Below, in pieces: positions 11,043 through 32,554 of a DNA stretch of 64,000 nt. Within the stretch, counting starts at the first letter, position 1, and each line of letters opens with the position of its first letter. The DNA comes from a virus. The position numbers were made by a program, and so were the translations under genes. Location: IMG/VR virus record IMGVR_UViG_3300050821_009780, positions 79,504 to 143,503 of that record. One strand, given 5' to 3'. The notes under the pieces are model-generated. The model searched no databases, was not told where the DNA came from, and saw only the letters and a list, made by a program, of their open reading frames with translations.

Positions 11043-11745
11043 CAGCCAGGAGGTACCGCTGGGGCGGCGCGTCCGGCAGGTAGCAGCGGGACTGCAGGTC
11101 CTCGAAGGCGGCCGGTGAGCAGTGCGCCCCGCCGTACTGGCCGATGTGCTGGGACCTCGCCAGGTGCGGGTAGACGACCTTCCGGCCCTGCTCCCGGCAC
11201 CAGTAGTCGTTGAGCCGCCAGTCCCAGCCGTTGTGCTCGTAGTTGAACGTCCAGTCGGCGGCCAGCTGCTCCCAGCGGTCGCGCCAGGTGCCCCAGACCC
11301 AGCCGTGAAACTCCTGCTCGACGCTGACGGCGGCGGCCTGCTGCGGGTCTCGCGGGTACTGCCGGTAGGTAGAGACCGCCAGGATGCCTGGGTCAGCGGC
11401 GAACCGCTCACTCGCCCAGGCAAAGTACTCCAGGGTGTCCGCGCCGACCGTGATGTCGTCCTCGGCGAGGATGACGAAATCGTCCGGCTGCGAGTAATCG
11501 GGGAAGGCCCCGAACCCGCAGGTGACGGCGTGGAACGGGTTGGCCTGCACGCCGAGGTGCCTGCTGTTGACGTGCACGGTCACGGACGGCAGGGCCGCCT
11601 CGGCGATGACGCGTTCCATGTGCGGGCAGCCCGGTTCCACGTGGAAGTCCAGGGGCGTGTTCTCGACGCCGCGCACCCGCGCCCAGCTGGCCAGCACCTC
11701 CTGCATGTAGTTGGCCCGACTGAACGCGGTAAAGACGACCCTCAT
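11035..11745 (-). CDS. Glycosyltransferase (GT-A fold)
   Basis: VFTAFSRANY, ILAEDD (DxD-like), WGTWRDRW, WDWRL and RSQHIG motifs. Confidence 0.8.
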   Translation of the reverse strand: MRVVFTAFSRANYMQEVLASWARVRGVENTPLDFHVEPGCPHMERVIAEAALPSVTVHVNSRHLGVQANPFHAVTCGFGAFPDYSQPDDFVILAEDDITVGADTLEYFAWASERFAADPGILAVSTYRQYPRDPQQAAAVSVEQEFHGWVWGTWRDRWEQLAADWTFNYEHNGWDWRLNDYWCREQGRKVVYPHLARSQHIGQYGGAHCSPAAFEDLQSRCYLPDAPPQRYLLADG

Positions 11746-12410
11746 CACCCGTTCGGCCTCGCAATCTCGGGGGGCGGCCACGGCTCGGTCCACTGCCCGG
11801 CCTCGACCATCTTCCTGGCCTGCTGGAACAGCAGCTCGTCGTACTGCATGCGCCCGCCCTCGGTCATGCCCGCGCCGCGCAGGTGCTGCGCCCAGTGGTG
11901 GGTGAAGCTGTAGCCGGTGCGGAGCCGGGACCGCCAGCCTTGCCGTGACCCTCGGTAGCTGAACCAGTCATCTGTGTAATAATGACAGGTGAGCAGCGGG
12001 ACGATCTTCTCCAGCTGCGCCCGGGACACGAACGGCAGCGCGGTCATGCTGACCTCAGCCCAGTCCCGGCCGACGACGCCGACCTGCGGGCAGGACTGGG
12101 GGTAGCCGTCCGGAGCGTACACCTGCGGGGCGGGCAAGAAGCCGAGGTCGGCGGCCTCGACGGCCGGCTGCGCCCAGCCCGGGTGCGGCTCGATGTCATC
12201 GCAGGTGAAGTGAAAGTACCGGGCACGGGTGCTGGCCCGGTCCAGCCCGGCCTGCCAGGCGGCCCCGCAGGTGGGGTGGTTGCGCTCGATGATGAGGTTC
12301 AGCTCGTAGGCACCGCCGGCGCAGTCACGGTACGCCTGCCAGCAGCGCTCGAAGTGATCTTCCCGGCCATCGACTGTCGGAATTATTACACTGATGACGG
12401 GAAGGCTCAC
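11745..12410 (-). CDS. Glycosyltransferase family 2
   Basis: ISVIIPT, FTCDD and YYTDDW motifs. Confidence 0.8.
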   Translation of the reverse strand: MSLPVISVIIPTVDGREDHFERCWQAYRDCAGGAYELNLIIERNHPTCGAAWQAGLDRASTRARYFHFTCDDIEPHPGWAQPAVEAADLGFLPAPQVYAPDGYPQSCPQVGVVGRDWAEVSMTALPFVSRAQLEKIVPLLTCHYYTDDWFSYRGSRQGWRSRLRTGYSFTHHWAQHLRGAGMTEGGRMQYDELLFQQARKMVEAGQWTEPWPPPEIARPNG

Positions 12411-13135
12411 GTCTCCTCGATCCACGTGCTGAGGTACCCGCACTCGCGGCGCCCCTTGACCTCGTAGTACTGCTGCGGCGGGTAGTGCTGGCTGAAGCAC
12501 CGCGACTGGACCTGATCGAGCGGGGGCTGCGGCTGGTAGCCGAACTCGCCGATGTCCTGCGCCCGGCTCAGGGCGGGCCGGAGGACGTCGTAACCCCGGC
12601 GCTGGCACCACGCCTGATCGATCCACTGGTACCAGTCCCCGTACCGGGACTCCGCCCAGGCAGCGCTGAGCAGCGCCCACTTCTCCCGGTGGAAGCCGTG
12701 CAGCCAGCCGATGGTCTGGGTACGCCAGACAGCGGCGGGGCCGCCGTCCAGGGCGGTATCGCGCCAGCAGGACAGGGCGAGGACGGTAGGGTCGTCGCGG
12801 TAGTTGTCGCGGTGCCAGGCGTGCAGCTCCAGCGCGTCATCGGAGGGCAGGTAGTCGTCCGAGGCGAGCACGGCGTAGCCCGCCCGGCGGCAGCCGATGT
12901 CCAGCGCCTGCTGGGTATTGCGCGAGGCACCGAGCTGCTTCAGGTTGACATAGACGTACCGCTCGGCGAAGTCCACCGACCAGCACAGCTCCCGCACCTC
13001 CTCGCAGCCAGGCTCGCAACAGAACTGGAGGACGGCATCTTCGATACCGCGGACCTTGGACCAGGCGTCCAGGGTCTGCCGGAGGTAGTCCGGGCGGTTC
13101 CAGGCGGTGAAGGCGACAGCGGTGCGCTCAGCCAC
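12407..13135 (-). CDS. Glycosyltransferase (GT-A), paralog of 11035-11745
   Basis: AFTAWNRPDY, EPGC, LASDD and SRAQDIG motifs. Confidence 0.8.
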   Translation of the reverse strand: MAERTAVAFTAWNRPDYLRQTLDAWSKVRGIEDAVLQFCCEPGCEEVRELCWSVDFAERYVYVNLKQLGASRNTQQALDIGCRRAGYAVLASDDYLPSDDALELHAWHRDNYRDDPTVLALSCWRDTALDGGPAAVWRTQTIGWLHGFHREKWALLSAAWAESRYGDWYQWIDQAWCQRRGYDVLRPALSRAQDIGEFGYQPQPPLDQVQSRCFSQHYPPQQYYEVKGRRECGYLSTWIEET

Positions 13136-13565
13136 GGCCGGCCTCCAGCACCCGGCGGCGGATCTCGGTGGTGGAGATAGACAGGCTCTGCCGGTAGGGC
13201 ACCCAGGCGAGGATGACCCCCTGGGCATCGAGCCAGTCCTGGGTCACGCCGACCTGGGCCAGGTAGTCCTTCCCCCGGCCCGGTGCCCAGTCCGTCCCGA
13301 TCGCGAGCACGTCCGGATGGAATTCGGCCACCATCTCCTTGCCGGCCGAATCGTTCAGCCGGGTCTCGTAGCCGAGCAGATGGAGCGCCAGGATACGCTC
13401 CCGCTCACTCATGATCGGGGCGGGCTTGAACTCCCGCACGAACCGGTCGGTATTAATCCCGACGACGAGCCGGTCGCCGAGAGCCGCGCACTGCTGGAGA
13501 AATGCCACGTGCCCGAAATGCAGGATATCGAACGTGCCGATGGTCAGCACCAGCCGGGGACTCAC
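13128..13565 (-). CDS. Cytidylyl/adenylyltransferase (TagD/RfaE-like)
   Basis: GTFDILHFGH (HxGH), GINTD, GTDW and ISTTEIRRR motifs. Confidence 0.9.
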   Translation of the reverse strand: MSPRLVLTIGTFDILHFGHVAFLQQCAALGDRLVVGINTDRFVREFKPAPIMSERERILALHLLGYETRLNDSAGKEMVAEFHPDVLAIGTDWAPGRGKDYLAQVGVTQDWLDAQGVILAWVPYRQSLSISTTEIRRRVLEAGRG

Positions 13566-14194
13566 TCGCACCACCGGAAACACGGGACGGGGATCTCCGG
13601 CCGCTCGTGCGGCTGAGCAGGCTTCGGCTGCGGCCCGTTCTGCGTGGTGTCCCAGGCGGACCACTGGTAGTCGTACACCGGGCGGCGCAGCAGCACCTCG
13701 TGCTTCAGCAGCGGCAGCACGCTGTTCACGTACACCATGTCCTCACCGGTGTAGCCGTACCCGCCGCGCAGGAAGGTGCCCTGCTTCGCCAAGCTGGACC
13801 GCACCGGGTTCATGTGGGTGAACCGGCGCTGGTAGCCGGAGTCCCGGTTGCCGGGCTGCAGGGCGATGCTCACGTCGGTGTAGAAGCCGGGGGTGCCGTG
13901 GTTGATGTGCCGCCAGCCGACCACGTCCGGGTCGCTGCGCAGCGCCTCCAGGATGTCGGCCACGTAGTACGAGGCGACCTTGTCGTCGTCGTCCACGAAG
14001 CACAGGTAGTCACCCTCGGCGGCGTACAGCAGCCGCTCGCGGTACGCCTCCAGCAGCTCCTCGCCCTGGTTCTGCAGGGCCACCACCTCAACTTGCTCGG
14101 CGGCGGCCTGGCACTGCGGCAGCAGCTCGCTGAGCAGGTGCAGGAACTTGTGCTGCCGGCGGGCGAGGGTGGGGATGAGGACGGACAGTCTCAC
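13562..14194 (-). CDS. Glycosyltransferase family 2
   Basis: LSVLIPT, FVDDDD and GED motifs. Confidence 0.85.
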   Translation of the reverse strand: MRLSVLIPTLARRQHKFLHLLSELLPQCQAAAEQVEVVALQNQGEELLEAYRERLLYAAEGDYLCFVDDDDKVASYYVADILEALRSDPDVVGWRHINHGTPGFYTDVSIALQPGNRDSGYQRRFTHMNPVRSSLAKQGTFLRGGYGYTGEDMVYVNSVLPLLKHEVLLRRPVYDYQWSAWDTTQNGPQPKPAQPHERPEIPVPCFRWCE

Positions 14195-14850
14195 AGCGTC
14201 GCCCGTATCCAGCCGTTCTGCGGCTCAGCATCATAAGGCGGCACCCCGTCCGGGTAAGGGTAAGGGATGACCTCCAGCCGGTAGGCGGACAGCATCTCCT
14301 GGCAGGTGTCCCGCAGCGCGGGGGAGTGCCATTCGACCAGCCACTCGGTGCGGCCCATGAGGGTGCCGGCCCCCTCCAGCACCCGGACCTCGCCACCCTC
14401 GGTATCCACCTTCACCAGCTGCGGCACCCCGTACTGCGCGGCGAGGGCATCCAGGGTGACGCACCGGACGGTACGACGGCCGGTCTCGCCGCTCCACCAC
14501 AGATCCGGGGAGTGCCCGACCAGCTCCGGGGCCAGCAGCTCCCCGCCCTGGATGGCGCCCGCGCACACGGACAGCTCCAGAGTGCCGGTGCGCTCGGCGG
14601 CAGCCCCCTGGAGGAGGGTGACCCGGCCGTCGCTGCCGAACTCCCGCACGAGCACCTCCCACGCCTCGGCGGACGGCTCCAGCGCCACCGCCCGGCGGAA
14701 CCGCCCGGCGGTCACCATGGCCCGCAGCGACTGGCCGTGGTTGGCGCCTACGTCAAAGGCGAGGTCTCCCTCGAAGTTCCACAGCCAGTAGTGCAGCGGG
14801 ACCGGGTCGTTGGTCTCGTAGGAGACCCCGTTGTACTGGACCGGCGTCAT
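14191..14850 (-). CDS. FkbM-family methyltransferase
   Basis: FDVGANHG, ALEP, VTLD, VKVDTEGGE and VEWH motifs. Confidence 0.9.
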   Translation of the reverse strand: MTPVQYNGVSYETNDPVPLHYWLWNFEGDLAFDVGANHGQSLRAMVTAGRFRRAVALEPSAEAWEVLVREFGSDGRVTLLQGAAAERTGTLELSVCAGAIQGGELLAPELVGHSPDLWWSGETGRRTVRCVTLDALAAQYGVPQLVKVDTEGGEVRVLEGAGTLMGRTEWLVEWHSPALRDTCQEMLSAYRLEVIPYPYPDGVPPYDAEPQNGWIRATL

Positions 14851-15809
14851 CCCTGCCACGCCCCGTTCCGGTCAAACTTGCGGAAGTACTCGTAGGTGCG
14901 CTTCATCCCGTCGGCCAGGTCCATCTCCGGCTCCCAGCCCAGCGCCCGCAGGTGCGAGTCGTCCAGGGACTTGCGGAAGGTAATCTGCCCCGGCGGCGGG
15001 ACCTCCACGATGCACGACTTGCTCCCGGCCAGCTCTCTGGCCATCTGAGCCAGCTCCAGGACCGGGTAGTGGTCGTCGTTGCGGCAGACGTTCCAGGTGC
15101 CAGCCTTGCCGGCCTCCAGGATGGCGGCCAGGCCGCGCACGCTATCGCCGACCCAGGTGAGGCAGCGCTCGGTGCCGAGGTGGACGCGCAGGTCCATCCC
15201 GTGCTCGGCCTCCCAGAGCATGGAGTGCAGCACGTTGTATCCGACGGTACCGGGCTTGCCAGAGATGTGCGGCTTCTCGGCCGTCCGGGGCGGCCAGTAG
15301 GCGGGACCGTAGGGCATGTTCAGCCGGGCGACCATGAGGCCCTTCGGGGCGTAGACCCGGCATGCCTCCTCGCCCCACTTCTTGGACAGGCCGTACATGT
15401 TGACCGGCCGAAGCTGCGAACCGGGGCCGACGGTGCCGCTGTTGGCGGACTCGCCGTACACCTCGGAGGAGGACATGAACATGAGCCGGGAGCCGTAGTG
15501 CGCGCAGTCGCGGGCCAGCTGCCCGGTGAGGCCGGCGTTCATGCCTGCGGTCTTGTGCATGTCCACCTCGCCCCACACCCGGCCGTACAGCGCGGCGAGG
15601 TGGACCACGACATCAGGGCGGCGGTCCTCCAGCCAGTCCTCGCGGGCCTCGCGGCAGTTCAGGTCGAACAGGCGGAAGGTATCCCAGACCGGCTCGGTGG
15701 TGTTGGGGTAGACCAGGTCCTGGGCGTGGACCTCGTGGCCGCAGCGGTGCAGCTCGGCGAGCAGCCAGCCGCCGACATATCCTGACGCGCCAGTAACAGC
15801 GATTCTCAT
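14847..15809 (-). CDS. NAD-dependent nucleotide-sugar epimerase/dehydratase
   Basis: VTGASGYVG, HLAA, SSSEVYG and YGLSK (YxxxK) motifs. Confidence 0.9.
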   Translation of the reverse strand: MRIAVTGASGYVGGWLLAELHRCGHEVHAQDLVYPNTTEPVWDTFRLFDLNCREAREDWLEDRRPDVVVHLAALYGRVWGEVDMHKTAGMNAGLTGQLARDCAHYGSRLMFMSSSEVYGESANSGTVGPGSQLRPVNMYGLSKKWGEEACRVYAPKGLMVARLNMPYGPAYWPPRTAEKPHISGKPGTVGYNVLHSMLWEAEHGMDLRVHLGTERCLTWVGDSVRGLAAILEAGKAGTWNVCRNDDHYPVLELAQMARELAGSKSCIVEVPPPGQITFRKSLDDSHLRALGWEPEMDLADGMKRTYEYFRKFDRNGAWQG

Positions 15810-16957
15810 GCGGTGAAGTACTCCGTTTTCAGCAGTCCGGCCGCCGTCAGCGGCGCGTGGTGGCCGTTCCCGTTGCCGTTCGTCGGCGGCAGGGGCGGGC
15901 AGAGCTTCTCGCTCAGCACGGCAGCGGCCAGCTCCAGCCCGGCCCGGCGGTCCTCGGTGCGGCACCTGACCTGCAGGTCCCACAGCACGCCCATCGCCCG
16001 CACCACGCGCCGGGAGTCCACGCTGTGTGCCAGCAGCAGGCGGCCCTGCAGGGCCTCGCCCTGGGCGGCAACCGTGCCCCCGGCGGACAGCACCAGCACG
16101 TCGCGCAGGCAGGTAACCAGCTGCCGGGTAAGGGCGGGGTAGTCGCTGCAGGTGAGCAGCGCCCGGTCCAGCTCGGCGTACATCCCCTTGTGGTCGCCCT
16201 GCGCGGCGGCGGCGAGCAGGGCCGGGGCGAAGTCCTCGTCGCAGGTGAGCTGCTGCCAGGCGTCCAGGGTGACGATGTCCACCGACGCAGCCTGGTCGAG
16301 CAGCATGAGTCCGTCGCGCATGATCCCGTCGGCCCGGTCGGCCAGGTGGAGGAGCAGGCTGTCCTCGACGACAATGTCCTCGGCGGCGCAGACGTGGCGC
16401 AGCCGGGAGGCGATGACGGACGGGGCCAGCCGGGCGAACGCGAAGGGGATGCAGCGCGACCCGATCGTGTCCGGCACCTTGCCGTGCTCGGTGGTGGCGA
16501 GCACGAAAGCGGTGCGCGGCGGCGGCTCCTCCAGCGTCTTGAGCAGCGCGTTGGAGGCATCACGGCTCATGGAGTGGCACTCGTCGAGTATCACGACCCG
16601 CCACTCGCCAGGGGCGCCGTACTGCACCAGGTCGCAGATGCTCCGGATCTTGTCCACGGTGCCGTTGGAGGCGGCGTCCACCTCGATCACGTCCAGGGAA
16701 GTGCCGCCGGCGACCGCCTTGCAGGACGAGCAGGCGGTGCAGGGCCAGGAGGCGGCCGGGCCAGGCGGCTCGTGGCAGTTGAGGGCGGCGGCGAAGATGC
16801 GGGCGCTGGTGGTCTTGCCCGAGCCGAAGGCCCCGTAGAACAGCAGTCCGGCGGGCACGCGCTTGCGCTGGGCCATCCGGTTCAGCACCCCCGCCACCTC
16901 GCGCTGGCCGACCAGCTCGGCGAACCGCTGAGGACGGTATTTCGTGGCCAGCCTCAT
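15806..16957 (-). CDS. dnaX: DNA polymerase III gamma/tau-like clamp loader ATPase
   Basis: ATKYRPQRF, GAFGSGKTT, Zn-binding Cys cluster, EVDAAS, LDECH, NALLKTLEEPP and SRC motifs; gamma-sized (383 aa). Confidence 0.92.
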   Translation of the reverse strand: MRLATKYRPQRFAELVGQREVAGVLNRMAQRKRVPAGLLFYGAFGSGKTTSARIFAAALNCHEPPGPAASWPCTACSSCKAVAGGTSLDVIEVDAASNGTVDKIRSICDLVQYGAPGEWRVVILDECHSMSRDASNALLKTLEEPPPRTAFVLATTEHGKVPDTIGSRCIPFAFARLAPSVIASRLRHVCAAEDIVVEDSLLLHLADRADGIMRDGLMLLDQAASVDIVTLDAWQQLTCDEDFAPALLAAAAQGDHKGMYAELDRALLTCSDYPALTRQLVTCLRDVLVLSAGGTVAAQGEALQGRLLLAHSVDSRRVVRAMGVLWDLQVRCRTEDRRAGLELAAAVLSEKLCPPLPPTNGNGNGHHAPLTAAGLLKTEYFTA

Positions 16958-17229
16958 TGCGGTCTCCTGCCGATCGTGGTTCCCAGGAACACGTGCGCTG
17001 GGCTATCGGGTACGGGCGTGCTGGCCTTGCGCCGCACACCCTCCGGAATTCCCAGGGAGCAGCTGCCGGCGGCGGACTCGTCGGGCACCAGCTCGTAGCC
17101 GAACTCCATCTCGCACTGCGTGCAGCGCCAGTAGCAGAGCATGCCGCCCTCGGCCAGCTCCTCCTCCGGCTCGGCGGCGCCCCCGCAGTCGCTATCCAGG
17201 CAGGCGCGGTTCAGTTCGTAGCGTTCCAC
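16954..17229 (-). CDS. Small Zn-ribbon protein
   Basis: CLDSDC...CTQC; coupled to dnaX. Confidence 0.5.
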   Translation of the reverse strand: MERYELNRACLDSDCGGAAEPEEELAEGGMLCYWRCTQCEMEFGYELVPDESAAGSCSLGIPEGVRRKASTPVPDSPAHVFLGTTIGRRPQ

Positions 17230-18356
17230 GGCAGCCTCTCCAGCAGGATGAGCAGGGCCAGCACGGCCTGCCGCGGAACGACCCCGTTGCCGAGGATCTT
17301 CAGCTGGGCGTTGCGGGACAGGCCGTCCACCCCGGTGACCCAGCCCTCCGGCAAGCCGAGCATCCACTCCACGAAGACGGGGGCGAGCACGCGGTTGCCC
17401 TTGCTGCCCGGCTCCAGCGGGTGCGGCACCATCCGGCCGGTGACCTGCTGCCAGCGCAGGACGGCCCGGGAGTACTTGCCCCAGTCCACCACCGGGCCGC
17501 TGCCCAGGTGCTCGGCCAGGCCAGGGAGCAGCAGCTCCCCGCTGCGTGCCCCGGAGCGGTTCCTGTGGCCTCCGGTCACGTCGGCGACCTGCGGGGTGGG
17601 CAGGAGCGCGCCGGCCAGGGTCGGGTTACCGCGCTTGTACGCCAGGCTGCGCCGCTCCCCGTCAGCAGCTGCCGGGGTGGGGAGAAGGCTGCCCCCGGTG
17701 CCCATCATGTCGTTCTCCACCATGATCCGCAGGTCGGTGACCGAGGTGCGGCCCGGCTTCTTGCGCAGGTGGTTCTCCGGGGTGTTCTGGCTGTAGCTGG
17801 CGACCGGGGTGGGCAGCAGCTCGTGCTCGGCCTGGTCGGCGAGAGTGGGGCCGTGGCCGCCGGCCCGGCGCTTATCCGGGTGCTGGCTGCCGCCGTTGAC
17901 GGCGAGCTGCGCGGTGGGGGTCTTCAGCAGACTGACCGCCTCGGGCAGGTCCGCGTCCGCTGCGGTGCGCGCCCGGCCGTCCCTGCGGACCCGGCCCACC
18001 GACACGGTAGGGCCCTTGTGGTCGCTGGCCTGCGGGGTGGGCAGCATGGACAGCGTCTCGATGAGGGTGCCGCCCTCGCGGGCCTTGGCGGGGGTGACCA
18101 GTCCGCCGTTACTGCCCAGCGTCGCCGAGGGCGTCGGGAGCAGCAGGCCATGCGGTGATGAAGATCCGCTCCCGCCGGTGGCAGGACCCGGCATCTGAGG
18201 CGCGTACATTCTGCCATTCCGCATCGTACCCGAGGGTGGAAAGGTCTCCGAGAACAGCTCCGAGTGCCCGCAGAGCATGTCCTGCCCTTTTTCCCAGACA
18301 GATCTCGCAGGATTCCACGTCGCTATGGGCGGAGGCAGAGCATATCCCTCGGACAT
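17211..18356 (-). CDS. C5 cytosine methyltransferase C-terminal subunit (motifs IX-X) with LLPTP repeats
   Basis: Six L(L/M)(P/K)TP-initiated repeats, then VEWMLGLPEGW...QLKILGNGVVP. Confidence 0.75.
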   Translation of the reverse strand: MSEGYALPPPIATWNPARSVWEKGQDMLCGHSELFSETFPPSGTMRNGRMYAPQMPGPATGGSGSSSPHGLLLPTPSATLGSNGGLVTPAKAREGGTLIETLSMLPTPQASDHKGPTVSVGRVRRDGRARTAADADLPEAVSLLKTPTAQLAVNGGSQHPDKRRAGGHGPTLADQAEHELLPTPVASYSQNTPENHLRKKPGRTSVTDLRIMVENDMMGTGGSLLPTPAAADGERRSLAYKRGNPTLAGALLPTPQVADVTGGHRNRSGARSGELLLPGLAEHLGSGPVVDWGKYSRAVLRWQQVTGRMVPHPLEPGSKGNRVLAPVFVEWMLGLPEGWVTGVDGLSRNAQLKILGNGVVPRQAVLALLILLERLPWNATN

Positions 18357-18690
18357 TTTCGATTACCACCAGTTCCGGCCGGAGAATTCCGATTGCGTAA
18401 GCCATGTACGTCCACACGCCGCTGCGGGTGCCGGGGCGCAGCCCGGCCCGCTGGCCGGCGCAGGACACGTCCTGGCAGGGGAACCCCCCGCAGAAGATGT
18501 CCACCGGCTCGACCTGGTCCCACTCCACGGTGCTGATGTCGCCCAGGTTCGGCACGTCCGGGTAGCGCTGCTTGAGCAGCAGGGACACATCCGGGTCGTT
18601 GTCGGCAACCCAGGCCAGCTCGGCGCCGAACACGGCCTCGACGGCCCCGTCCAGGCCGGCGTAGCCGGTGCAGGCCGACCCGAGCCTCAC
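18109..18690 (-). CDS. C5 cytosine methyltransferase N-terminal subunit (motifs I-VIII)
   Basis: SACTGYAGLD, GDI, GGFPCQDVS (catalytic PC), IENV and HRRERIF motifs. Confidence 0.88.
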   Translation of the reverse strand: MRLGSACTGYAGLDGAVEAVFGAELAWVADNDPDVSLLLKQRYPDVPNLGDISTVEWDQVEPVDIFCGGFPCQDVSCAGQRAGLRPGTRSGVWTYMAYAIGILRPELVVIENVRGICSASAHSDVESCEICLGKRAGHALRALGAVLGDLSTLGYDAEWQNVRASDAGSCHRRERIFITAWPAAPDALGDAGQ

Positions 18691-18977
18691 CGGTGCCCCG
18701 CCACCCAGCGGTGATGCGCAGCCCGGACCCTCATGTGACGCGGCAGGGTAACAGTCATGATGGACTGCCAGCCGTTCCTCTTGGCCCGGAACCCGTAGGA
18801 CGGCGGATCGCACATGGTGCAGAGCCAGCGCCACGGGTACTCTCCCCAGCCGTGGCTCTCAGCGTAGCCGCCCTTGCCGTAAAGGATGAACCGATCGCGC
18901 CAAACATAGAACCTGCGCTCGGTCGGGCGCCGGTAGTTCGTGCTGGGCGGGTTACGCCAGCTGGTCTGGATTTTCAC
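18687..18977 (-). CDS. Hypothetical protein
   Basis: GTGA-coupled to the MTase gene. Confidence 0.5.
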   Translation of the reverse strand: MKIQTSWRNPPSTNYRRPTERRFYVWRDRFILYGKGGYAESHGWGEYPWRWLCTMCDPPSYGFRAKRNGWQSIMTVTLPRHMRVRAAHHRWVAGHR

Positions 18978-19277: not shown

Positions 19278-22200
19278 TTATACGAGCCTGCTGAGGCCGA
19301 CCGCGAAACCGGACGCTCCCAGCTCGTCCCGGCAGCGGGGGCAGTAGTCCATATCGAACACCTCGCCGAGCAGCCCGGCCGGGACGGCGGTGCCGCAGCC
19401 GATGCACACCGGGCGCAGCAGGCTGCCCTGGAGCGGGTCGGCACCGTCGAAGAACGCGAGCCGACGGGCGGTGTAGCGCATAGCATCCACCCAGGACTTC
19501 TTGCCGCACAGCGGAGCGTACGCCTGGTAGGGGCCGAGCTTGCCGTTGAGGATCATGCGCAGCAGCAGCCGATCAGCGTCGCGGACCAGCCAGGCGTCGG
19601 CGATGTGATCCTTGGCGTTGGCCTCCTCGGCGCTCATGCCGGAGTAGAAACTTTCCTGTTTGAGCAGCACCCGCACCTCGGGAGCCTCATCGTAGGCGCG
19701 CAGGGCGGCGGCGAGGGCCTGCTCGCCTCCCGCCACCTCCAGCTCCCAGAAGGATTTGGGGGTCGCCGGAAGCTGGGACTCCTTGGGGTAAAGCATCCAG
19801 CTCTGAAGGGCCAGCCACGGGTCCAGCTCCGCCTTGAACCAGGCGATGAAATTGTTCATCTTGTGCGGCTGACGGGTGAGGCCGAACTCGGCGTAGTCCG
19901 TCCCGGCACTGCGGTCGCGGAACTTGTAGGCATCGCTGACGATGCGGACCGACCGCTTGGCGATGGGCGGGAACCCCTCGGTGTGCTCCTGGGCGCGGTA
20001 GGCGGCGCGGCGGATGGCGAACTTCCAGTGCGCGTTCGACACGAACCGGTGCTTCTCCGACCGTTCGTACCGGAACCGGACCTTGCACGCGACGGTGGTC
20101 TGATCGAGGGGGCGGACCGGCCGGGCCTCCAGGTCGCGGTCGGTCGCCTTGAGGTAGCCCTGGCGGATCTTCAGGTCGGTCTTGTCGCAGCAGCCGCAGG
20201 TGTTGCCGGAGCAGTGCTGGTCGCAGCGGGCAATCCACTCGCTGCCGCGGTAGCTCTCGTCGAACTGCTCGTCGTAGCTCTCGCTGTCGGTTCCCTCCAG
20301 GAACTGCACCATGTGCCGGTAGGCGCCCCACATGAGCTGCTTGGAGACGCCGGTGTCGATGTGCTCCCAGCCGAACAGGTCGTCCTCGCCCATCTCCAGG
20401 AACAGGTCGTCCAGCCCGTTGCGGAACCCGTGGTTCTTCAGCGCGGCGTTGAGCCGGTCCTTCATGTCCTTGGCGACGCCGCCCCAGCAGCCGGCGGCGA
20501 GGTCCTCGATCACGTCGGTGATGGCCTCCCCGGCGTCGCGGCTGGCCCGCTGGCACGCCTGGAACAGGGCGATCTTCTCCGGCTGGGCCTTGCTGCCGAG
20601 CTTCATCTCGATCCGCTGGTCGCGGAGGTCGGCCATGGCCTGCTGGAGGGTGTAGTCGGGGGCGGTGGGGGCGAACCACTGCATGGGGGTCTGCGCCTCG
20701 ATGAGCAGCGGCGTCCAGGAGAACTGGATCCGCACGCCGGGCTGGCCGAGCTGCTCGCGGATCTCTGCCAGCCGCTGGCCGAGCCTGACGATCCGCATGA
20801 CATCCCCCGCTTCCTCGCCGGGCATGTTGGAGATCATGAACAGCTTGACCTTGCGGATGCCGGCCCGGATGGCACGGGTGACGGCCTCCTCGACGTCCTG
20901 GTCGGAGACGCCCTTGCCGATCAGGTCGCGCATCCGCTGGCTGTTGCCCTCCAGGCCGAGGGTGACCGCATCGGTACCGCCGAAAGCGAGCAGCATGGAG
21001 TAATCCGGGTCGCCGATGAAGTCATCTACCCGCATCGCCCCGGTATCCACCTCGTCGGACACCTGCTCCAGCAGCCCGCCGAGCAGCTCCTTCTTGCGGG
21101 TGTACATGGGGAAGTCGGGGCCGTAAGGAGACAACTCGTTCGATCCCATGTTGAGCCGCCACTGCCTGGCCTGCTCGATCAGGTACTCCACGCTGTGCTC
21201 GCGGTAGGGCTTGTCCACGTAGGTGAGGTGGCAGTTCATCGTAAACACGCCGTCCGCCAGCGAGAAGCGGTGCGAACCCGGCACAGTCAGGCAGTAGACC
21301 TCCTGCGGCTTGTCCAGCGGCTCGATGGCCTCAACGCACCACCCGTGCCTTTCCGGCTTGACCAGGGTGTGCTGCATGAGCGGAGCGCTACGCGGCCCGA
21401 AGTTGGTTACGTCGGAACGGCTCTGACAGCAACCGACGTACACCCAGCCTCCCTGCGCAGCGTGTCGCTCCAGCCACTGGCTGGGAGACGTGTCGCCATG
21501 GTGCTGAGCACTGTACTGCGCAGCAAGAACATAAGAGGTCTCCTTAGCACGCAGGGTGCCATCTGCGGCAAGCCAGCCTTCCAGGAACCCAGCTACGTAA
21601 GCGGTATCAACTGCGGGCGAAGGCCATGACTTGACATCGAAGGCGGCCCACCCATAGACCACAACATCACCCTTGGCGTAATCCGGGTTCTGAATGGAAC
21701 TGACCCGGAGGTCAGGGCGGACAGCCCAAGAATCCCGGTCGTCCTGGTCAGGCTGCCAAAACTTCTCGAACCAAGGCCGAACGGCGGCGTCCTTGCCAAA
21801 CAGGCGCACCTTGAAGGAACCCGACAGCACAGGCCGCCGTTCACCGGTAGAGAGCTTCCGCTGGTGGCCGTCCCCGAACAGGAACCCGTGCACCCGGCCG
21901 AGGTCGTAGCTCGACCCGTCGTACTGCACCGAGGCAGCAGCAGCAGGCACAAAGTCTCCAGCCCGTAGCGCATGCGTCTCCGTACCATCTACCAGCTCCC
22001 AGCCATGCGCCGCAGTGGCTGTGACCTGAACCCGATGCGTGGCCTTGGGGTTACGTCGCCAGGCTCCGTTCGCCGTTCCGCAGTCGGCGGGACGGAAGGT
22101 GATGCGCTGCACCGCCTGGACCCCGTGCGACTCTACGGTAGCGCTAGCCCAAGCCGCGCCATCCCAGACCTCAGCCTTCCCGACCCCGTGCAACCAGTCG

Positions 22201-23156
22201 ATGGATGAGATGCCCCACTCGCGAGACAAAACCTGAGTCTCCCCGATCAACGGGAAGCTGCACCAGGCCGGGCAGCCCTTGCCTGCCTCGATGTCCCCCG
22301 CGCCCATGCCCGGGTCGGAGTACAGCAGCGGGGCCTGGGTGTGCGGGGCGGCGCTGTCCAGGTCCTTGACGTACCGCTTCTTGAACCTGACCGCCGGGCC
22401 GCCGAGCGCCGTAGGGCCGGACCACCCGCTCACCAGCTTGGTCGGCTCGGGCAGCCCGCGGTCCTCGTACCTGTAGCCGAACTCCACCTCGCGGGGGAAG
22501 TACAGGAACGGGAACTCCACCGCCAGCATCCGGTAGCACATGGACCGCTCGGCCCGCCACAGGCCGTCCGCCTTCATGTCCGCGATGGCTTCCATGACCA
22601 CCGAGATGCCGGGGTTGCCGGGGGCGTCCTCGGCCTCGCCGAGGAAGACGCAGTCCACTACCGGGGCCATGAACTCGGGGTGGCTCCACGCCTGCCCGCC
22701 GGCCATGACCATGGGGTAGGCACCCGGGTCACCCAGGCGGTCGCGCCAGCGCAGCGGGATGCCACTTACCCGGAGGTACTGGCAGAAGTTGAGCCAGAGG
22801 ACGGTGTAAGAAATAGAAGTAGCGAAGACGTCGAAGTCCTGTACGCCGTGCTTGGTCTCAATCCCGAAGACAGGTAGACCCGCCCGCTCCAGCAGGCGGA
22901 AGTCACGTGGGGTGGCAGGCAGGTAGAAACGGTCACAGAGCGCTCCAGGAGAGTCGTTGACGCACCGGTAGACGACCGGGGTGGAGTTGTTCCCCGCCGC
23001 CTGCATGTACGGCCAGGAGGCCGCCAGGAGCATGCGGACGGACGCCTGGTCCCACGGCTTACGGACGGAGCCCGGCTCGTCGCCCAGGTATGCCTCGGGG
23101 CCGTCCAGCTTCCACAGATTGCCGTCCAGCCAGCGCTGGATATGCCCAGGGTCCAC
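19278..23156 (-). CDS. TIGR03960-type (B12-binding-like) radical SAM protein fused to a DUF2344/TIGR03936-like domain; intein-containing
   Basis: GIETKHGVQDFDVFATSISY...GIPLRW.DR...AGG...PE...FLGEAED N-terminal domain; KGCPAWCSF[intein]C; EGNSQRMR and KLFMISNMPGE; C-terminal VRFRYERSEKHRFVS...IRRAAYRA and a terminal CxxC-CxxC. Confidence 0.85.
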   Translation of the reverse strand: MDPGHIQRWLDGNLWKLDGPEAYLGDEPGSVRKPWDQASVRMLLAASWPYMQAAGNNSTPVVYRCVNDSPGALCDRFYLPATPRDFRLLERAGLPVFGIETKHGVQDFDVFATSISYTVLWLNFCQYLRVSGIPLRWRDRLGDPGAYPMVMAGGQAWSHPEFMAPVVDCVFLGEAEDAPGNPGISVVMEAIADMKADGLWRAERSMCYRMLAVEFPFLYFPREVEFGYRYEDRGLPEPTKLVSGWSGPTALGGPAVRFKKRYVKDLDSAAPHTQAPLLYSDPGMGAGDIEAGKGCPAWCSFPLIGETQVLSREWGISSIDWLHGVGKAEVWDGAAWASATVESHGVQAVQRITFRPADCGTANGAWRRNPKATHRVQVTATAAHGWELVDGTETHALRAGDFVPAAAASVQYDGSSYDLGRVHGFLFGDGHQRKLSTGERRPVLSGSFKVRLFGKDAAVRPWFEKFWQPDQDDRDSWAVRPDLRVSSIQNPDYAKGDVVVYGWAAFDVKSWPSPAVDTAYVAGFLEGWLAADGTLRAKETSYVLAAQYSAQHHGDTSPSQWLERHAAQGGWVYVGCCQSRSDVTNFGPRSAPLMQHTLVKPERHGWCVEAIEPLDKPQEVYCLTVPGSHRFSLADGVFTMNCHLTYVDKPYREHSVEYLIEQARQWRLNMGSNELSPYGPDFPMYTRKKELLGGLLEQVSDEVDTGAMRVDDFIGDPDYSMLLAFGGTDAVTLGLEGNSQRMRDLIGKGVSDQDVEEAVTRAIRAGIRKVKLFMISNMPGEEAGDVMRIVRLGQRLAEIREQLGQPGVRIQFSWTPLLIEAQTPMQWFAPTAPDYTLQQAMADLRDQRIEMKLGSKAQPEKIALFQACQRASRDAGEAITDVIEDLAAGCWGGVAKDMKDRLNAALKNHGFRNGLDDLFLEMGEDDLFGWEHIDTGVSKQLMWGAYRHMVQFLEGTDSESYDEQFDESYRGSEWIARCDQHCSGNTCGCCDKTDLKIRQGYLKATDRDLEARPVRPLDQTTVACKVRFRYERSEKHRFVSNAHWKFAIRRAAYRAQEHTEGFPPIAKRSVRIVSDAYKFRDRSAGTDYAEFGLTRQPHKMNNFIAWFKAELDPWLALQSWMLYPKESQLPATPKSFWELEVAGGEQALAAALRAYDEAPEVRVLLKQESFYSGMSAEEANAKDHIADAWLVRDADRLLLRMILNGKLGPYQAYAPLCGKKSWVDAMRYTARRLAFFDGADPLQGSLLRPVCIGCGTAVPAGLLGEVFDMDYCPRCRDELGASGFAVGLSRLV
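21234..22253 (-). mobile_element. Class 3 intein (340 aa) with LAGLIDADG homing endonuclease
   Basis: Starts PLIGET; block B TAAHGW; LAGLIDADG-like HGFLFGDG and EGWLAADG; block F VYCLTV; ends FTMN|C. Visibly more AT-rich than its flanks. Confidence 0.88.
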
Positions 23157-23420: not shown

Positions 23421-23620
23421 TACAGGTCTTCCCGGTGCACTTCGAGGATGCGGTTCCGCAGCTCGCGCTCCAGCTTCTCCAGGCCGAAGCTATCCACCTG
23501 GTGGAGCACGACGAACTTGCTGCCGCGCGTGAGCCCGTCGCCGTGGAACCGCGCCACGTCCCGGACAATATCCCACTCGGGATTGTTCTTCGGGTGATCC
23601 AGCTTGATGCGGAACTTCAC
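23420..23620 (-). CDS. Hypothetical protein
   Basis: Tightly packed minus-strand ORF. Confidence 0.5.
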   Translation of the reverse strand: MKFRIKLDHPKNNPEWDIVRDVARFHGDGLTRGSKFVVLHQVDSFGLEKLERELRNRILEVHREDL

Positions 23621-24264
23621 TCGGACTCCCCCTCGTGGACCTCGGTCACCCCGTCCGCCCCTAGTACAAGGCGGTAACGTGCGTCGGCCAGGTCACCGAA
23701 GGCCGTGCTGTGCGTGACGAGCAGGATCTGCACTCCAGCCTTGTCAGCGACCTCACGCAGGAACTCGGCCACCCGAGGCTCATAGGACGCTGAGACGTGG
23801 GCAAATGACTCGTCCAGTGCCAGAAAGCGGCGCGCTCCCGGGGTGAGCAGGAGCACGACCAGCCGTAGAACGAATCCCACGACAGCAGCCATCCCTCCGC
23901 CCCGGGCATCCAGCACTGGAGTCTCGACCACGTCATCTCCGTAGCTGCTCCTGATCACGAAGTCCACCTCGGCGCGGTTCGCCTTAACGGACGGGACCAT
24001 GTGGAAGGTCAGGTTCTCGGAGAAGATCACCTGCAGCGCCCGGGTGACCAGCCCCTCGACCTGCTGCCGGGCGGATTCCTGGCGCTCCTCGCCGATGGTG
24101 GTGAGCAGCGCGCACGCCTTCTCGTGCAGCTCCTGGGCGGCGCGCAGCTCGCGGACCCGCTCCTGAGCCTCCTTGCCCTGCCGGGCCACCTGGGCGGCCT
24201 GCCCGGCCTCCCGGTCCAGGCCCCGCTGCACCTGGGCCAGGCGCGCGGACAGCGCAGGAATCAC
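23617..24264 (-). CDS. Rad50/SbcC-like ABC ATPase, C-terminal half
   Basis: Coiled coil, then signature-like RGGG, Walker B/D-loop LALDESFAHVS and H-loop LVTH. Confidence 0.8.
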   Translation of the reverse strand: MIPALSARLAQVQRGLDREAGQAAQVARQGKEAQERVRELRAAQELHEKACALLTTIGEERQESARQQVEGLVTRALQVIFSENLTFHMVPSVKANRAEVDFVIRSSYGDDVVETPVLDARGGGMAAVVGFVLRLVVLLLTPGARRFLALDESFAHVSASYEPRVAEFLREVADKAGVQILLVTHSTAFGDLADARYRLVLGADGVTEVHEGESE

Positions 24265-24467
24265 TGCCCTCCGCCGATCCAGATGCCCTTCTTCTGCGGG
24301 GAACAGCACGAGCACCGGGCCCGCCTGACGGTACCGTCCTCCGCAACTATCAGCGGCAGTCCCTCGTGGCTGTGCGCCTTGGAGGAGTGCTCCTTGTGCT
24401 TCAGCCTGCGCCGCTGCGCCGGGGTGGGGCTGCTGCCGTACAGCTTCGCGCGCTCTTCATGCGTCAT
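24261..24467 (-). CDS. Hypothetical basic protein
   Basis: MTHEERAKLYG...; GTGA-coupled. Confidence 0.45.
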   Translation of the reverse strand: MTHEERAKLYGSSPTPAQRRRLKHKEHSSKAHSHEGLPLIVAEDGTVRRARCSCCSPQKKGIWIGGGQ

Positions 24468-24851: not shown

Positions 24852-26051
24852 CTAGTATCCCACCAGCGAAGAAGCCATCTGCGTGAGCACCTGAACGGTC
24901 CCGGTGCCCTCCAGAAGGATAACGGAGCGGCGCTTGCCGAGGTCCTTGCCGAGCCGGAACGCGCAGGTCACATCAGGGTGCGCGGCCAGCATCTCGGCGA
25001 GGAACACGTGGTTGACGCACAGCACCCGCTCCTTGCCGGGCCAGTCGGTGACCAGCTGAACGGGCACGGACGCGGAGTGGCCCACCTGATCGCGGGACAC
25101 CACGGTAACGGTGCTGCCCTCGACGACCAGCGCGATGGCGGCGGTGTCGGCGTCGGCGTTGACCCGGACGCACCGCACGGCAGCCGACAGCTCCTCGCGG
25201 TCCACGGCGAGTACCTGGTCGTTATCCCCCGCCGGGCCGAGCAGCTGCTTGTCCATGTCCGGGAACGGGGTGGAGCGGCGGGCCACGGCGAACACCACGT
25301 GGTCGGCGCGGAACACCAGGGCATCCTCGGTGACGGCCACGCCGACGGCGTCGCCCTGGCTGCCGGACACCAGCCGGACGATGTCGTCCAGGGCCGAGGA
25401 GGGGATGCACATGGGGTGGGGGAACTCGTCCAGCTCGGCGCGGGCGAACCGGGTGCCGTCGGAGGCGGTGATGCGCCTGCCCTCGAACCCGTCCGAGCCT
25501 TCGGGGGCGCCGATCTCCACCTGGGTGAGCATGGGGCGGCCGGCGTCGCGGCACACCGCATGGCGTACCGCCTTCAGCCCGGCGAGGAACTTCTCCGCCG
25601 GGTACAGGAAGAACCCCAGCTCGGACGGCTCCAGCAGCTGCGGGTACTCGCCGCTGTCCGGCAGGGCGAACACCCAGGAGGCGCTCCCGGCGGTGACGGT
25701 CGCCCGATCCTTCTTCACCGCGACGGTAATGCTCTCCTCCGTCGCCTCCTTCAGCACGGCCTGGAGCTTCTTCGCCGGGATGAACGCCTCGGCGGAAGCT
25801 GACTCGTCCACGCTGTCGCCGGTCCACACCGCCTCCGTGGAGGCGAGGACGATGCGCTCCATGTCGGTGGCGGCCAGCTCCAGCCCGGCATGGCTCACCC
25901 GGACCCGGTAGCAGCTAAGCACGGGGAACTGGCCGGAGGAGGGCACCGCCGGTGCCACGGCAGCGGCCAGGGCCTTCAGCACGTACGGCTTGACCCGGAA
26001 GGTGAACTCCCCGTAATCGGTTCCCGCAGCCGGTTCGTCCGCCTCGTTCAC
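24852..26051 (-). CDS. dnaN: DNA polymerase III beta sliding clamp
   Basis: PVLS, LELAATDME, IPAKKL, EYP, RPMLT, ASDGTR and FPD motifs; 399 aa, three-domain size. Confidence 0.85.
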   Translation of the reverse strand: MNEADEPAAGTDYGEFTFRVKPYVLKALAAAVAPAVPSSGQFPVLSCYRVRVSHAGLELAATDMERIVLASTEAVWTGDSVDESASAEAFIPAKKLQAVLKEATEESITVAVKKDRATVTAGSASWVFALPDSGEYPQLLEPSELGFFLYPAEKFLAGLKAVRHAVCRDAGRPMLTQVEIGAPEGSDGFEGRRITASDGTRFARAELDEFPHPMCIPSSALDDIVRLVSGSQGDAVGVAVTEDALVFRADHVVFAVARRSTPFPDMDKQLLGPAGDNDQVLAVDREELSAAVRCVRVNADADTAAIALVVEGSTVTVVSRDQVGHSASVPVQLVTDWPGKERVLCVNHVFLAEMLAAHPDVTCAFRLGKDLGKRRSVILLEGTGTVQVLTQMASSLVGY

Positions 26052-29962: not shown

Positions 29963-31356
29963 GGCAGCGCGTGCGCGGCGAGCAGGCTCCAGGTGACCGG
30001 GCCGACGGTACCATCCTGCTGCGCCGGGTCGTTCGGGTAGTAAGCCCGCTGCACTGCGACGACGGCGTTCTCAGTGTTCTGCCCGAAGTTCCCGTCGATG
30101 GCGAGCTGCAGCCCGTGCGCCTCGCACAGCGCCTGCACCCGCTTGACAGAGGCAGCCACAGGCAGGCCGGAACCCTTAGTCAGGGTCAGCAGCTGAGCGT
30201 TCGGCGAGCCGCCGACCAGCACCTCCCAGGTCACCGGGTCGGTCCAGCCGGTGGTCAGCAGCCCGGCGGTGGCCTGCAGGGCCTCCAGCGCGGTCTGGGT
30301 CTCGGCCCCGAAGTCCCCGTCCACCGGCACCGCCTGGCTGGCGGGAAGCGCCACGTTGAGGAGCAGCTGCACCTGGCGGACCCACGTCACGTTCCCGGCG
30401 GCGTCCTGGTCGCCCAGCCGGATGCCGGGGAGCTTGGAGTACAGCGTGGTCTCCCAGGCAGCGAGCGGAGCCGGGGCAGGAGCTGGCGGAGCAGGAGCCG
30501 GGGCGGGCGGCGGCGGGGGCGCGTACAGCCACAGGGTCACGTCGGAGGGAACAGGGGCAACCGGGGAGATCGTCCCGGCGAACATGCCGTTGATGAAGTC
30601 GGTGAGCGCGGCGTTCCAGCCGTACTTGACGTAGGTCCCGGCCAGGATGCCGGCGACGGTCTGGCCCGGCGCGAGCGCGGCGGCCTCGTACATGGCGGTC
30701 CGGCCATCTCCGCGCCACTGCTGCGGCACGGCGGGATCGGGCGCGGGGAGCTGGAAGAACGCGGGGCTGTTCACCGCCGACTCGTCCCACCCGGCGGTGG
30801 AGACGTACTGGGTGCCGTCCGCCTGGGGGTACCCGCAGGCGCTGGGCGAGCAGATGTGCCGGCCGATCCAGTGCGCGGACCAGATCCGGTACTTGGTCCT
30901 CGGTATCCCTGCGGCGGTGCACGCGTCGATGCAGTCCTGCACCGAGTAGCCGGCCGCCGCGCCGGGGGAGGCGTAGAAGCCGAGGCCGCCCGCCTTGATG
31001 AACGCGGGCACGCTGGAGGCGGTCACGTTGCCCGGCTCGATGTCGGTGTACATAGCCCCCTTGGCCCCGTCCGGGGTGACGGACACCAGCTGGGCGGCGG
31101 GGAACCGGGCCCTCAGCGCGGCCATGTTCTCGTAGATGCCGTTGAAGTACCCGGCGTAGGCGAACGCCCCGGCGGGGTCCGACCCGACGGCGGTGCTGTC
31201 GTACATGGCCTCGACGCCGGACGGGAGGTTCGCGGCGGCCAGCAGGTGCGCGGCGGTATCAAACCGGGCCCCGTTCGGGCCTGCCTGCATGGTGGCGGCG
31301 ATCCAGGCGGCATCGTGCAGCAGGTTCTGCGGCTGGACCACGGTCTGCTCTGTCAT
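29959..31356 (-). CDS. Endolysin-like protein: GH25/DUF1906-like glycoside hydrolase plus two peptidoglycan-binding domains
   Basis: DIEPG, IWSAHW, GTQY and DES motifs; Pro-rich linker; two V..VQ...DG.FG..T..A...Q...G...P.TW PG_binding_1 repeats. Confidence 0.8.
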   Translation of the reverse strand: MTEQTVVQPQNLLHDAAWIAATMQAGPNGARFDTAAHLLAAANLPSGVEAMYDSTAVGSDPAGAFAYAGYFNGIYENMAALRARFPAAQLVSVTPDGAKGAMYTDIEPGNVTASSVPAFIKAGGLGFYASPGAAAGYSVQDCIDACTAAGIPRTKYRIWSAHWIGRHICSPSACGYPQADGTQYVSTAGWDESAVNSPAFFQLPAPDPAVPQQWRGDGRTAMYEAAALAPGQTVAGILAGTYVKYGWNAALTDFINGMFAGTISPVAPVPSDVTLWLYAPPPPPAPAPAPPAPAPAPLAAWETTLYSKLPGIRLGDQDAAGNVTWVRQVQLLLNVALPASQAVPVDGDFGAETQTALEALQATAGLLTTGWTDPVTWEVLVGGSPNAQLLTLTKGSGLPVAASVKRVQALCEAHGLQLAIDGNFGQNTENAVVAVQRAYYPNDPAQQDGTVGPVTWSLLAAHALP

Positions 31357-32291: not shown

Positions 32292-32305
32292 GTCTGTTGT
32301 ACGGG

Positions 32306-32554
32306 TCAGGCCGGGCAGGAGGACGTAGCCGCCAGCTCGGCGTCGTAGTCCTTGTCGGTCTTGATGGTCATGTTCGAGGTCTCCGAGCAGCCGCACGGGC
32401 AGCTGTAGCAGTCGCCGCCGCCGAAGCTGCCCGCCCCGCACACCCCGGCCCCGCAGTTCCAGCAGACGTGGTGCCAGTGCGCGGAGGTGTACAGCCGGGA
32501 CTGCTCGCACCGGTCAGGCAGCCGGACTGCCTTCAGCGCCATACCAGGGACCAT
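32306..32554 (-). CDS. Small Cys-rich protein
   Basis: Multiple CxxC motifs. Confidence 0.45.
   Translation of the reverse strand: MVPGMALKAVRLPDRCEQSRLYTSAHWHHVCWNCGAGVCGAGSFGGGDCYSCPCGCSETSNMTIKTDKDYDAELAATSSCPA

Follow-up and report, generated by a model that had tools for sequence, protein, structure and literature searches.

The bacterial proteins described by TIGR03960 and DUF2344 form a widespread family of radical S-adenosylmethionine (SAM) enzymes to which no function was assigned in the literature we searched, and the same searches returned nothing on the function of PF19864 or of YgiQ/UPF0313. In phages, radical SAM steps occur in thymidine hypermodification, as set out in two papers (PMC5889632, PMC8989533), and deazaguanine enzymes cross over between RNA and DNA, as described in a third (PMC5699537). 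Here we analysed a 64,000-nucleotide stretch of viral DNA (hereafter the window), which is the last 64 kb (positions 79,504 to 143,503) of a 143,503-bp IMG/VR virus record (IMGVR_UViG_3300050821_009780) classed as 100% complete by CheckV. On its minus strand lies a gene for a relative of these radical SAM enzymes, interrupted by an intein within its Fe-S motif. The product is a virus-specific variant of a known, uncharacterised enzyme family, and both its genomic association and its interruption by an intein are unusual. Its function is probably nucleic-acid modification, to judge from folds and context, and we place the phage's own DNA, tentatively and by a narrow margin, ahead of RNA as the target. 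An earlier note on the window had described the gene and proposed such a modification; its observations held in nearly every detail, and its interpretation was supported in part.

A radical SAM gene interrupted at its Fe-S motif

The open reading frame (ORF) proposed in the earlier note (19278-23156, minus strand) was intact over 1292 codons plus a stop, and the GC content of its third codon positions (GC3, 0.87) fell in the range of real genes of the same genome, which has a GC content of ~69% and carries essentially all of its credible genes on the minus strand. The radical SAM motif CxxxCxxC was made up of C295, C299 and C642, with the intein between C299 and C642, just before the third Cys. 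An intein-less homologue (P0002, 952 amino acids, 79% identical) was continuous across the insertion site, and the limits of the intein were therefore placed at residues 302-641, giving a spliced product of 952 amino acids (a 301-residue N-extein and a 651-residue C-extein), close to the ~950 residues estimated previously. The locus was also compared with contigs of four soil metagenomes, all of them assembled DNA contigs. In one run (X1), one contig joined position 21233 to 22254, skipping exactly 1020 nt, and another bridged both junctions with the intein present. The intein-less contig was a single low-depth record from a slightly different strain that agreed to the base with the limits derived from the proteins, which indicates that presence and absence of the intein are polymorphic within one soil sample.

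Class 3 inteins are defined by the absence of a position-1 nucleophile and by a Cys at F:4 (PMC4031507). The intein in the window started with Pro302, contained T-x-x-H-G-W in block B, Cys622 in block F (VYCL) and Thr639 in block G, and ended with T-M-N followed by Cys642. Pro302, Cys622, Asn641 and Cys642 at position +1 identified it as a class 3 intein. We take Trp at B:12 and Thr at G:5 to fit the WCT signature of the class. A homologous intein at the identical site in another family member (P0123) was 35% identical and kept the class 3 residues; a PDB sequence search with the intein gave no match. As C642 serves both in splicing, as the nucleophile, and in the Fe-S motif, as its third ligand, the cluster site would form only after splicing, itself predicted from the sequence, and removal of an intein that splits the ligand motif would thus gate cluster assembly. 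Splicing would join C295 and C299 to C642 and complete a CxxxCxxC motif able to bind a [4Fe-4S] cluster.

The gene family as a whole was a hot spot for inteins, with at least 10 distinct insertion sites (P0009-P0243), including several before each Cys of CxxxCxxC, one between GLEGN and SQRM and one between KIG and TKA. One protein of 2062 amino acids (P0131) contained three inteins, and the gene is among the richest intein hosts that we have seen.

An interrupted Fe-S motif, together with a penultimate intein residue that is Met rather than His, might suggest a decaying or selfish locus, in which the ORF persists mainly as a home for the intein and the enzyme is inactive. We consider this very improbable: every class 3 splice residue was present in the uninterrupted frame, the exteins remained 79% identical to the intein-less homologue, every invariant family residue checked was kept, and inteins persist only in genes under selection. 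A pseudogene serving as intein shelter was rejected because the frame and the splice residues are intact. The intein that the earlier note had placed in the active-site motif was thus borne out, in a gene that is strongly conserved.

Fold of the mature enzyme

Pfam models matched PF19864 Radical_SAM_N2 (E 4e-25, 88-92 bits) and PF04055 Radical_SAM (E 9e-10), and the PF04055 score of 40.5 bits on the C-extein, against a cut-off of 29.5 bits, together with CxxxCxxC, places the protein in the radical SAM superfamily. The catalytic half was modelled on residues 1-660 of P0002 from a 52-row alignment (predicted local distance difference test, pLDDT, 92.5). Its best solved match was MgmA (9ccb; Z 20.6, 369 residues, root-mean-square deviation (rmsd) 2.9, 20% identity), followed by RimO and MiaB (Z 16.5-16.6), AprD4, TsrM, OxsB, TokK and CysS, and the N-terminal domain matched the B12 domain of MetH at Z 7.3. 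The proposed layout of a B12-binding-like N-terminal domain and a radical SAM core was therefore recovered by both hidden Markov models (HMMs) and the structure model. From these structural neighbours, the chemistry would most likely be methyl or alkyl transfer.

Proteins are the substrates of both MgmA (Z 20.6) and RimO (Z 16.6), the two structures closest to the catalytic half; RimO acts on ribosomal protein S12. The enzyme might likewise modify a replisome, recombination or host protein, with its DUF2344 domain serving as a protein- or cofactor-binding module. We regard this as improbable, given that the pseudouridine-synthase fold of that domain (see below) is not known as a protein-binding module and that no conserved adjacent gene offers a candidate substrate except the replisome genes; the 84-amino-acid ORF immediately upstream is not conserved.

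Downstream of the barrel, a second cluster of four cysteines showed little or no variation among phage and bacterial relatives. In a model of the C-terminal part (residues 946-1292, pLDDT 90.4), residues ~1018-1265 matched pseudouridine synthases, with a Foldseek probability of 1.0 to Pus10, Pus1, Pus3 and TruA and with VIA-align scores of Z 10.8 to TruA and Pus10 (~200 residues, rmsd 3.4-3.7). The ESM-Atlas cluster of TIGR03936/DUF2344 matched the same model with a template modelling (TM) score of 0.73 over 215 residues (rmsd 3.0), and an hhalign comparison of 47 family members with 15 bacterial DUF2344 domains gave 99.35% (E 6e-21, 243 columns). Single-sequence matches to DUF2344 models were faint, at 14.9 bits for PF10105 (E 0.026) and 11.8 bits for TIGR03936 (E 0.14) on the window protein, and 5 of the 47 members were matched by the TIGR03936 or PF10105 HMMs at E<=0.01 (best 9e-6). 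A PDB sequence search found nothing for the C-terminal part and only weak barrel matches for the whole protein. The pseudouridine-synthase-like fold that the earlier note gave for DUF2344 thus agrees with the Z 10.8 matches of the model. Because the domain is fused to a radical SAM core, it probably binds the substrate rather than isomerising uridine. The aligned active-site loop region differed between phage and bacterial DUF2344 domains. The terminal Zn ribbon was present as described before; it is a conserved feature of the phage clade that bona fide bacterial proteins lack. Beyond it, the last 8-10 residues (AGL-x-R-x-G-V; 19281-19310, minus strand) were conserved in the close phage clade, and this tail may be a docking peptide.

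Relation to the bacterial proteins and a possible RNA target

TIGR03960 was the top NCBIfam match on both exteins, with 86.8 bits over model positions 4-206 and 83.0 bits over 269-575, and the next family scored <40 bits; P0002 reached 201.1 bits over positions 4-577 of 605. The curated cut-offs of TIGR03960 (462.3 bits), TIGR03936 (71.9 bits) and PF10105 (23.8 bits) were all missed, whereas bona fide bacterial fusions scored 563-803 bits on TIGR03960 and 109-166 bits on TIGR03936. Since the scores lay under the cut-offs despite end-to-end homology to TIGR03960 and fusion to a DUF2344-like domain, the phage protein is a homologue of the same architecture that lies outside the family by curated criteria. 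Its earlier description as TIGR03960/DUF2344-type therefore stands for a phage-encoded, end-to-end relative and fails for formal membership (201 versus 462 bits).

Phage and bacterial proteins share the order Radical_SAM_N2, radical SAM barrel, Cys4 cluster and DUF2344, and many polar residues of the core are invariant in both, which suggests the same chemistry. They differ in that the bacterial DUF2344 cleft motif GFHPxP is replaced in the phage proteins, in the Zn ribbon, which is a phage addition, and in genomic partner, which is the replisome in the phage and RNase E/G in bacteria. A scan of genome contigs made with bona fide bacterial proteins gave 80 bacterial loci (L033-L113), which we fetched with 4-kb flanks, several of which, among those without RNase E/G, end at contig edges. 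An RNase E/G gene was found within the flanks of 47 loci, downstream and on the same strand in 46 of these, usually starting within ~250 bp of the stop codon of the TIGR03960-DUF2344 gene. These loci spanned Thermodesulfobacteriota, Bacillota, Acidobacteriota, Nitrospirota and Elusimicrobiota. This operon link is strong and apparently unreported and, taken with the pseudouridine-synthase fold, points to RNA as the substrate of the bacterial enzyme. It offers the family a testable mechanistic frame, namely a methylase-like radical SAM core and a polynucleotide-gripping module of pseudouridine-synthase fold, in an operon with RNase E/G. The methylation of the rRNA backbone that the earlier note gave for the related YgiQ family found no support in the literature searched.

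By the same architecture, the phage enzyme may act on host rRNA or tRNA or on phage transcripts, with the pseudouridine-synthase-fold domain binding structured RNA and the radical SAM core modifying a flipped-out nucleotide, either retuning translation or shielding RNA from host nucleases. The leading fold matches comprise solely RNA pseudouridine synthases and mitoribosome assembly factors that share their fold, the DUF2344 domain is homologous to the bacterial one (99.35%), the bacterial relatives precede RNase E/G in several phyla, the core has MiaB, which acts on tRNA, among its structural neighbours, and the invariant polar residues of the core fit as well. Set against this, ARAGORN found no tRNA or tmRNA genes across the entire 143.5-kb genome, RNase E/G was not found in searches of that genome, the bacterial cleft motif has been lost and a Zn ribbon gained, and the gene has stayed with those for the replisome and recombination even among very distant relatives. 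Broadly conserved RNA-modifying enzymes are, to our knowledge, rare in phages. We consider an RNA target a serious contender, somewhat unlikely in itself but only slightly less probable than DNA.

Distribution, phylogeny and synteny

A word-indexed search recovered 347 homologues at E<=1e-3, more than 300 homologues being encoded on phage contigs; the best 120 were 48-79% identical, mostly 950-970 amino acids long and encoded on contigs of up to ~155 kb; an exhaustive search yielded 81 representative clusters below E 1e-30. Among 50,697 deposited phage records, megablast with the gene found no match, and tblastn returned, apart from one intein-only match, no more than fragments of 23-29% identity on short 'Bacteriophage sp.' contigs from human faeces that carry no annotation. 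No INPHARED phage carried the gene, and PHROGs held no family for the window protein. Microbacterium phage Magritte (OR553905.1), whose replisome genes are the closest among cultured phages (PolA 32%, DnaX 39%), lacks the gene. It has, at the equivalent position (L031, L032), a gene on the other strand for an 877-amino-acid hypothetical protein to which Pfam gave no match.

In an unrooted FastTree tree of 95 rows, the 21 bona fide bacterial proteins, which represent at least eight phyla, formed one clade on a long stem (support 100), the sister of which was a group of sequences from viral contexts, and the clade of the window protein (support 100) lay within other viral-context sequences. Nesting among host orthologues as a recent capture, which the earlier note had named as part of what would refute its proposal, was not seen in the tree. 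A recent capture from a host was rejected because tree and synteny both contradict it.

Synteny was assessed in 25 IMG/VR viral loci. The order Rad50 N-half, Mre11, PD-(D/E)XK nuclease, clamp, Rad50 C-half, radical SAM gene and DnaX was kept wherever the contig reached, and DnaX lay 3' of the radical SAM gene in 23 loci, the other two ending at the radical SAM gene itself. Across these loci the radical SAM protein equalled or exceeded the clamp, DnaX, Mre11 and the nuclease in conservation. A relative of 27% identity on a phage-like contig (L030) repeated the order nuclease, clamp, Rad50 C-half, radical SAM gene and DnaX. In another of 31% identity (L029), DnaX lay three small genes downstream and no clamp or Rad50 gene lay upstream; a third diverged relative was followed by glycosyltransferase, epimerase, Pyr_excise and AP (apurinic/apyrimidinic)-endonuclease genes. 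Two short contigs (P0249 and P0201) carried no informative context. The placement inside a replication and recombination block that the earlier note had remarked upon was thus fixed across the 25 loci and on L030, and a very diverse viral radiation of the same architecture makes the gene a fixed part of this module in ~150-kb soil phages. One homologue (P0077, locus L008) was annotated as a 1449-amino-acid fusion of the radical SAM protein with DnaX; the junction looks like low-complexity read-through, and the fusion may be a gene-calling artefact.

In relatives of 27-31% identity, UvdE, or Pyr_excise with an AP endonuclease, was encoded 3' of the radical SAM gene (L030, 7312-8190; L114, 5802-7240), which hints at a DNA-damage context. 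Could the enzyme be a radical SAM repair protein that directly reverses lesions in tightly packed or UV-exposed phage DNA, like spore photoproduct lyase? The neighbouring Mre11, split Rad50, PD-(D/E)XK nuclease and RecA genes, the UvdE or Pyr_excise and AP-endonuclease genes directly downstream in diverged relatives, the occurrence of the phage in soil metagenomes and a match of spore photoproduct lyase to the barrel at Z 11.4 are in keeping with this. That match, however, was no better than those of many unrelated radical SAM barrels, methylases and methylthiotransferases came closest in structure, RNase E/G rather than any repair gene accompanies the bacterial sister family, and neither UvdE nor Pyr_excise was found in searches of the phage's own genome. 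Repair by lesion reversal thus seems improbable.

Tentative role in DNA modification

Our preferred explanation, held tentatively and only narrowly ahead of an RNA target, is that the enzyme modifies the phage's own DNA. The gene has been co-inherited with clamp, clamp-loader and recombination genes over very deep divergence, DNA repair genes adjoin it in diverged relatives, and the phage, which in searches of its own genome lacked tRNA genes and RNase E/G, offers fewer RNA partners. The replacement of GFHPxP and the added Zn ribbon may be read, from the alignments, as signs that the substrate has changed relative to bacteria. The mature enzyme is a paralogue, in the phage lineage, of the bacterial TIGR03960-TIGR03936 fusion, and would be catalytically competent once spliced. 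A cobalamin-domain-like Rossmann module and the radical SAM barrel, with B12-type methylases and MiaB/RimO as nearest solved relatives, would form the catalytic core. The DUF2344 domain would hold a polynucleotide and offer a single nucleotide to the radical SAM site, and the Zn ribbon was acquired in the phage lineage. During or just after replication, the enzyme would use radical SAM chemistry to attach a covalent mark to phage DNA, a C-methyl or alkyl group being the most likely. A recognition module of the RNA type would thereby have been turned to DNA, much as the tRNA-guanine transglycosylase fold has been in phage DpdA.

The earlier note had also proposed coupling to the sliding clamp through a QGSLL peptide just before the Zn ribbon. 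The peptide is present, and the corresponding alignment column fitted Q-x-[DS]-[LFMW]-[LFW] in 42 of 183 members, with a looser fit in a further 11; fitting members from deep branches read QADFF, QDDLF, QGDLL or QGSLL. We take this column to resemble known clamp-binding peptides. The proposal fared less well in that the segment is deleted in a large subclade and ordered in the model. A predicted complex of the phage clamp with the C-terminal 97 residues scored 0.11 against a mark of 0.32, a value that speaks neither for nor against binding.

Several observations weigh against a DNA-marking, clamp-associated enzyme. Above Z 9, the solved structures that match the C-terminal domain are without exception those of proteins that bind RNA or act on it, and the adjacency of the bacterial sister family to RNase E/G (47 of 80 loci) points the same way. 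The position in the replication block is weak evidence of function, because phage gene order also reflects expression timing. A mark on the DNA of this phage is so far a prediction, as the runs available for it are all assembled contigs. The enzyme is no more than a candidate for cobalamin use, because B12-independent AprD4 and the methylthiotransferases have the same layout. The clamp-like motif is missing from most members, and the segment is well ordered in the model (pLDDT 86-94), more like a structural element than a free linker peptide.

Taken to its furthest extent, DNA modification would make the enzyme the first of the pseudouridine-synthase fold, and likewise the first of the B12-type radical SAM class, to act on DNA, descended from an ancestor tethered to the clamp by a QxDLF-type motif and placing a new C-alkyl or backbone mark on nascent DNA, that is, a new anti-restriction modification of a large clade of soil viruses resembling actinophages; we think this extended version doubtful. 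To all explanations other than DNA, RNA, repair and protein modification, the inactive locus among them, we jointly assign little weight. If DNA is marked, the locus would add one class to the phage DNA modifications and another to the substrates of such radical SAM enzymes; if RNA is marked, the rewriting of host or phage RNA by a phage would here be unusually well conserved.

Neighbouring genes

The neighbours listed in the earlier note, namely the beta clamp, Rad50, a C5 methyltransferase, DnaX and glycosylation genes, were all present at the coordinates collected in Table 1, and Mre11, a PD-(D/E)XK nuclease and RecA were also encoded around the radical SAM gene. Mre11, the nuclease and the clamp separate the two halves of Rad50, which lie ~7 kb from each other, a split layout kept in those related phage loci for which both flanks were fetched. 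The C5 cytosine methyltransferase comprises two overlapping frames within 17211-18834 (minus strand), the second of which (17211-18356) carries six repeats that start with LLPTP and a motif-X-like tail. The entire methyltransferase insert is missing from all 25 related loci, as are the small flanking ORFs, and a functional link of either to the radical SAM gene was rejected because of this absence. Glycosylation genes recur downstream in relatives, yet nothing connects them with the radical SAM enzyme, and a link to them was likewise rejected. Neither the methyltransferase nor the glycosylation genes show a specific tie to the enzyme. Searches of the phage's own genome found no N6 or N4 methyltransferase.

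Table 1. Positions in the window of the radical SAM gene, its parts and neighbouring genes
Feature	Position	Strand	Remarks
Epimerase, methyltransferase, glycosyltransferases	11035-15983		Glycosylation genes near the radical SAM gene
DnaX clamp-loader ATPase	15806..16957	-	Conserved downstream neighbour in relatives
C5 methyltransferase, N-half	18109-18834	-	PF00145, E 1.4e-23
Radical SAM precursor, whole gene, intein-interrupted	19278..23156	-	One intact ORF, 1292 codons + stop
C-extein, residues 642-1292	19281..21233	-	Remaining radical SAM barrel, Cys4 cluster, DUF2344-like domain, Zn ribbon
Zn ribbon CxxC-x17-CxxC (C1251, C1254, C1272, C1275)	19332..19406	-	Within last 45 residues
QGSLL, residues 1243-1247	19416..19430	-	Clamp-binding-like pentapeptide before Zn ribbon; only part of family
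DUF2344/TIGR03936-like domain, residues ~1018-1240	19437..20105	-	Pseudouridine-synthase (TruA/Pus10-type) fold, from model
Second Cys cluster C978, C982, C987, C990	20187..20225	-	Candidate auxiliary Fe-S or Zn site
Intein, residues 302-641	21234..22253	-	340 amino acids, 1020 nt; class 3 signature and two LAGLIDADG-like motifs
N-extein, residues 1-301	22254..23156	-	B12-domain-like Rossmann module (PF19864, residues 61-203); C295, C299
Rad50/SbcC-type ATPase, C-terminal half	23617..24315	-	Coiled coil, Walker B, H-loop; conserved upstream neighbour
Beta sliding clamp	24852..26051	-	Two genes upstream of radical SAM gene, conserved there
Rad50/SbcC-like ATPase, N-half	31353-32510	-	Walker A

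Comparison with known systems

Class 3 inteins of the type found in DnaB of mycobacteriophage Bethlehem share with the intein in the window the lack of Cys or Ser at position 1, the Cys at F:4 and the terminal Asn followed by Cys at +1. The phage intein differs from them in having Pro at position 1 and a LAGLIDADG-type endonuclease, in its extein, which is a radical SAM enzyme, and in an insertion that splits an Fe-S ligand motif; two surveys of actinobacteriophage inteins made no mention of 'radical SAM'.

The closest solved relative of the catalytic half, MgmA/QCMT, is the cobalamin-dependent glutamine C-methyltransferase of methyl-coenzyme M reductase. It has the same layout of Rossmann domain plus barrel, acts on a protein and lacks the DUF2344 domain, Cys4 cluster and Zn ribbon of the phage enzyme. 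MiaB and RimO resemble the phage enzyme in their three-part build, in which a flavodoxin-like domain at the N terminus is followed by the radical SAM barrel and then by a domain that binds the substrate. The phage N-terminal domain, however, has no conserved Cys triad of the MiaB/RimO type for an auxiliary cluster, and its C-terminal module has a pseudouridine-synthase fold where theirs is a TRAM fold. That module in turn resembles TruA, Pus1, Pus3 and Pus10 (Z 9.3-10.8, ~200 residues, rmsd 3.2-4.3) at 6-10% identity.

Thymidine hypermodification in M6- and ViI-like phages and the DpdA/7-deazaguanine pathway involve protein families unrelated to the phage enzyme, and none of the hypermodification pathway genes looked for was present in the phage genome. 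These pathways provide the analogy for our tentative proposal, in that they suggest how a phage enzyme with an ancestry in RNA modification may come to act on DNA after replication.

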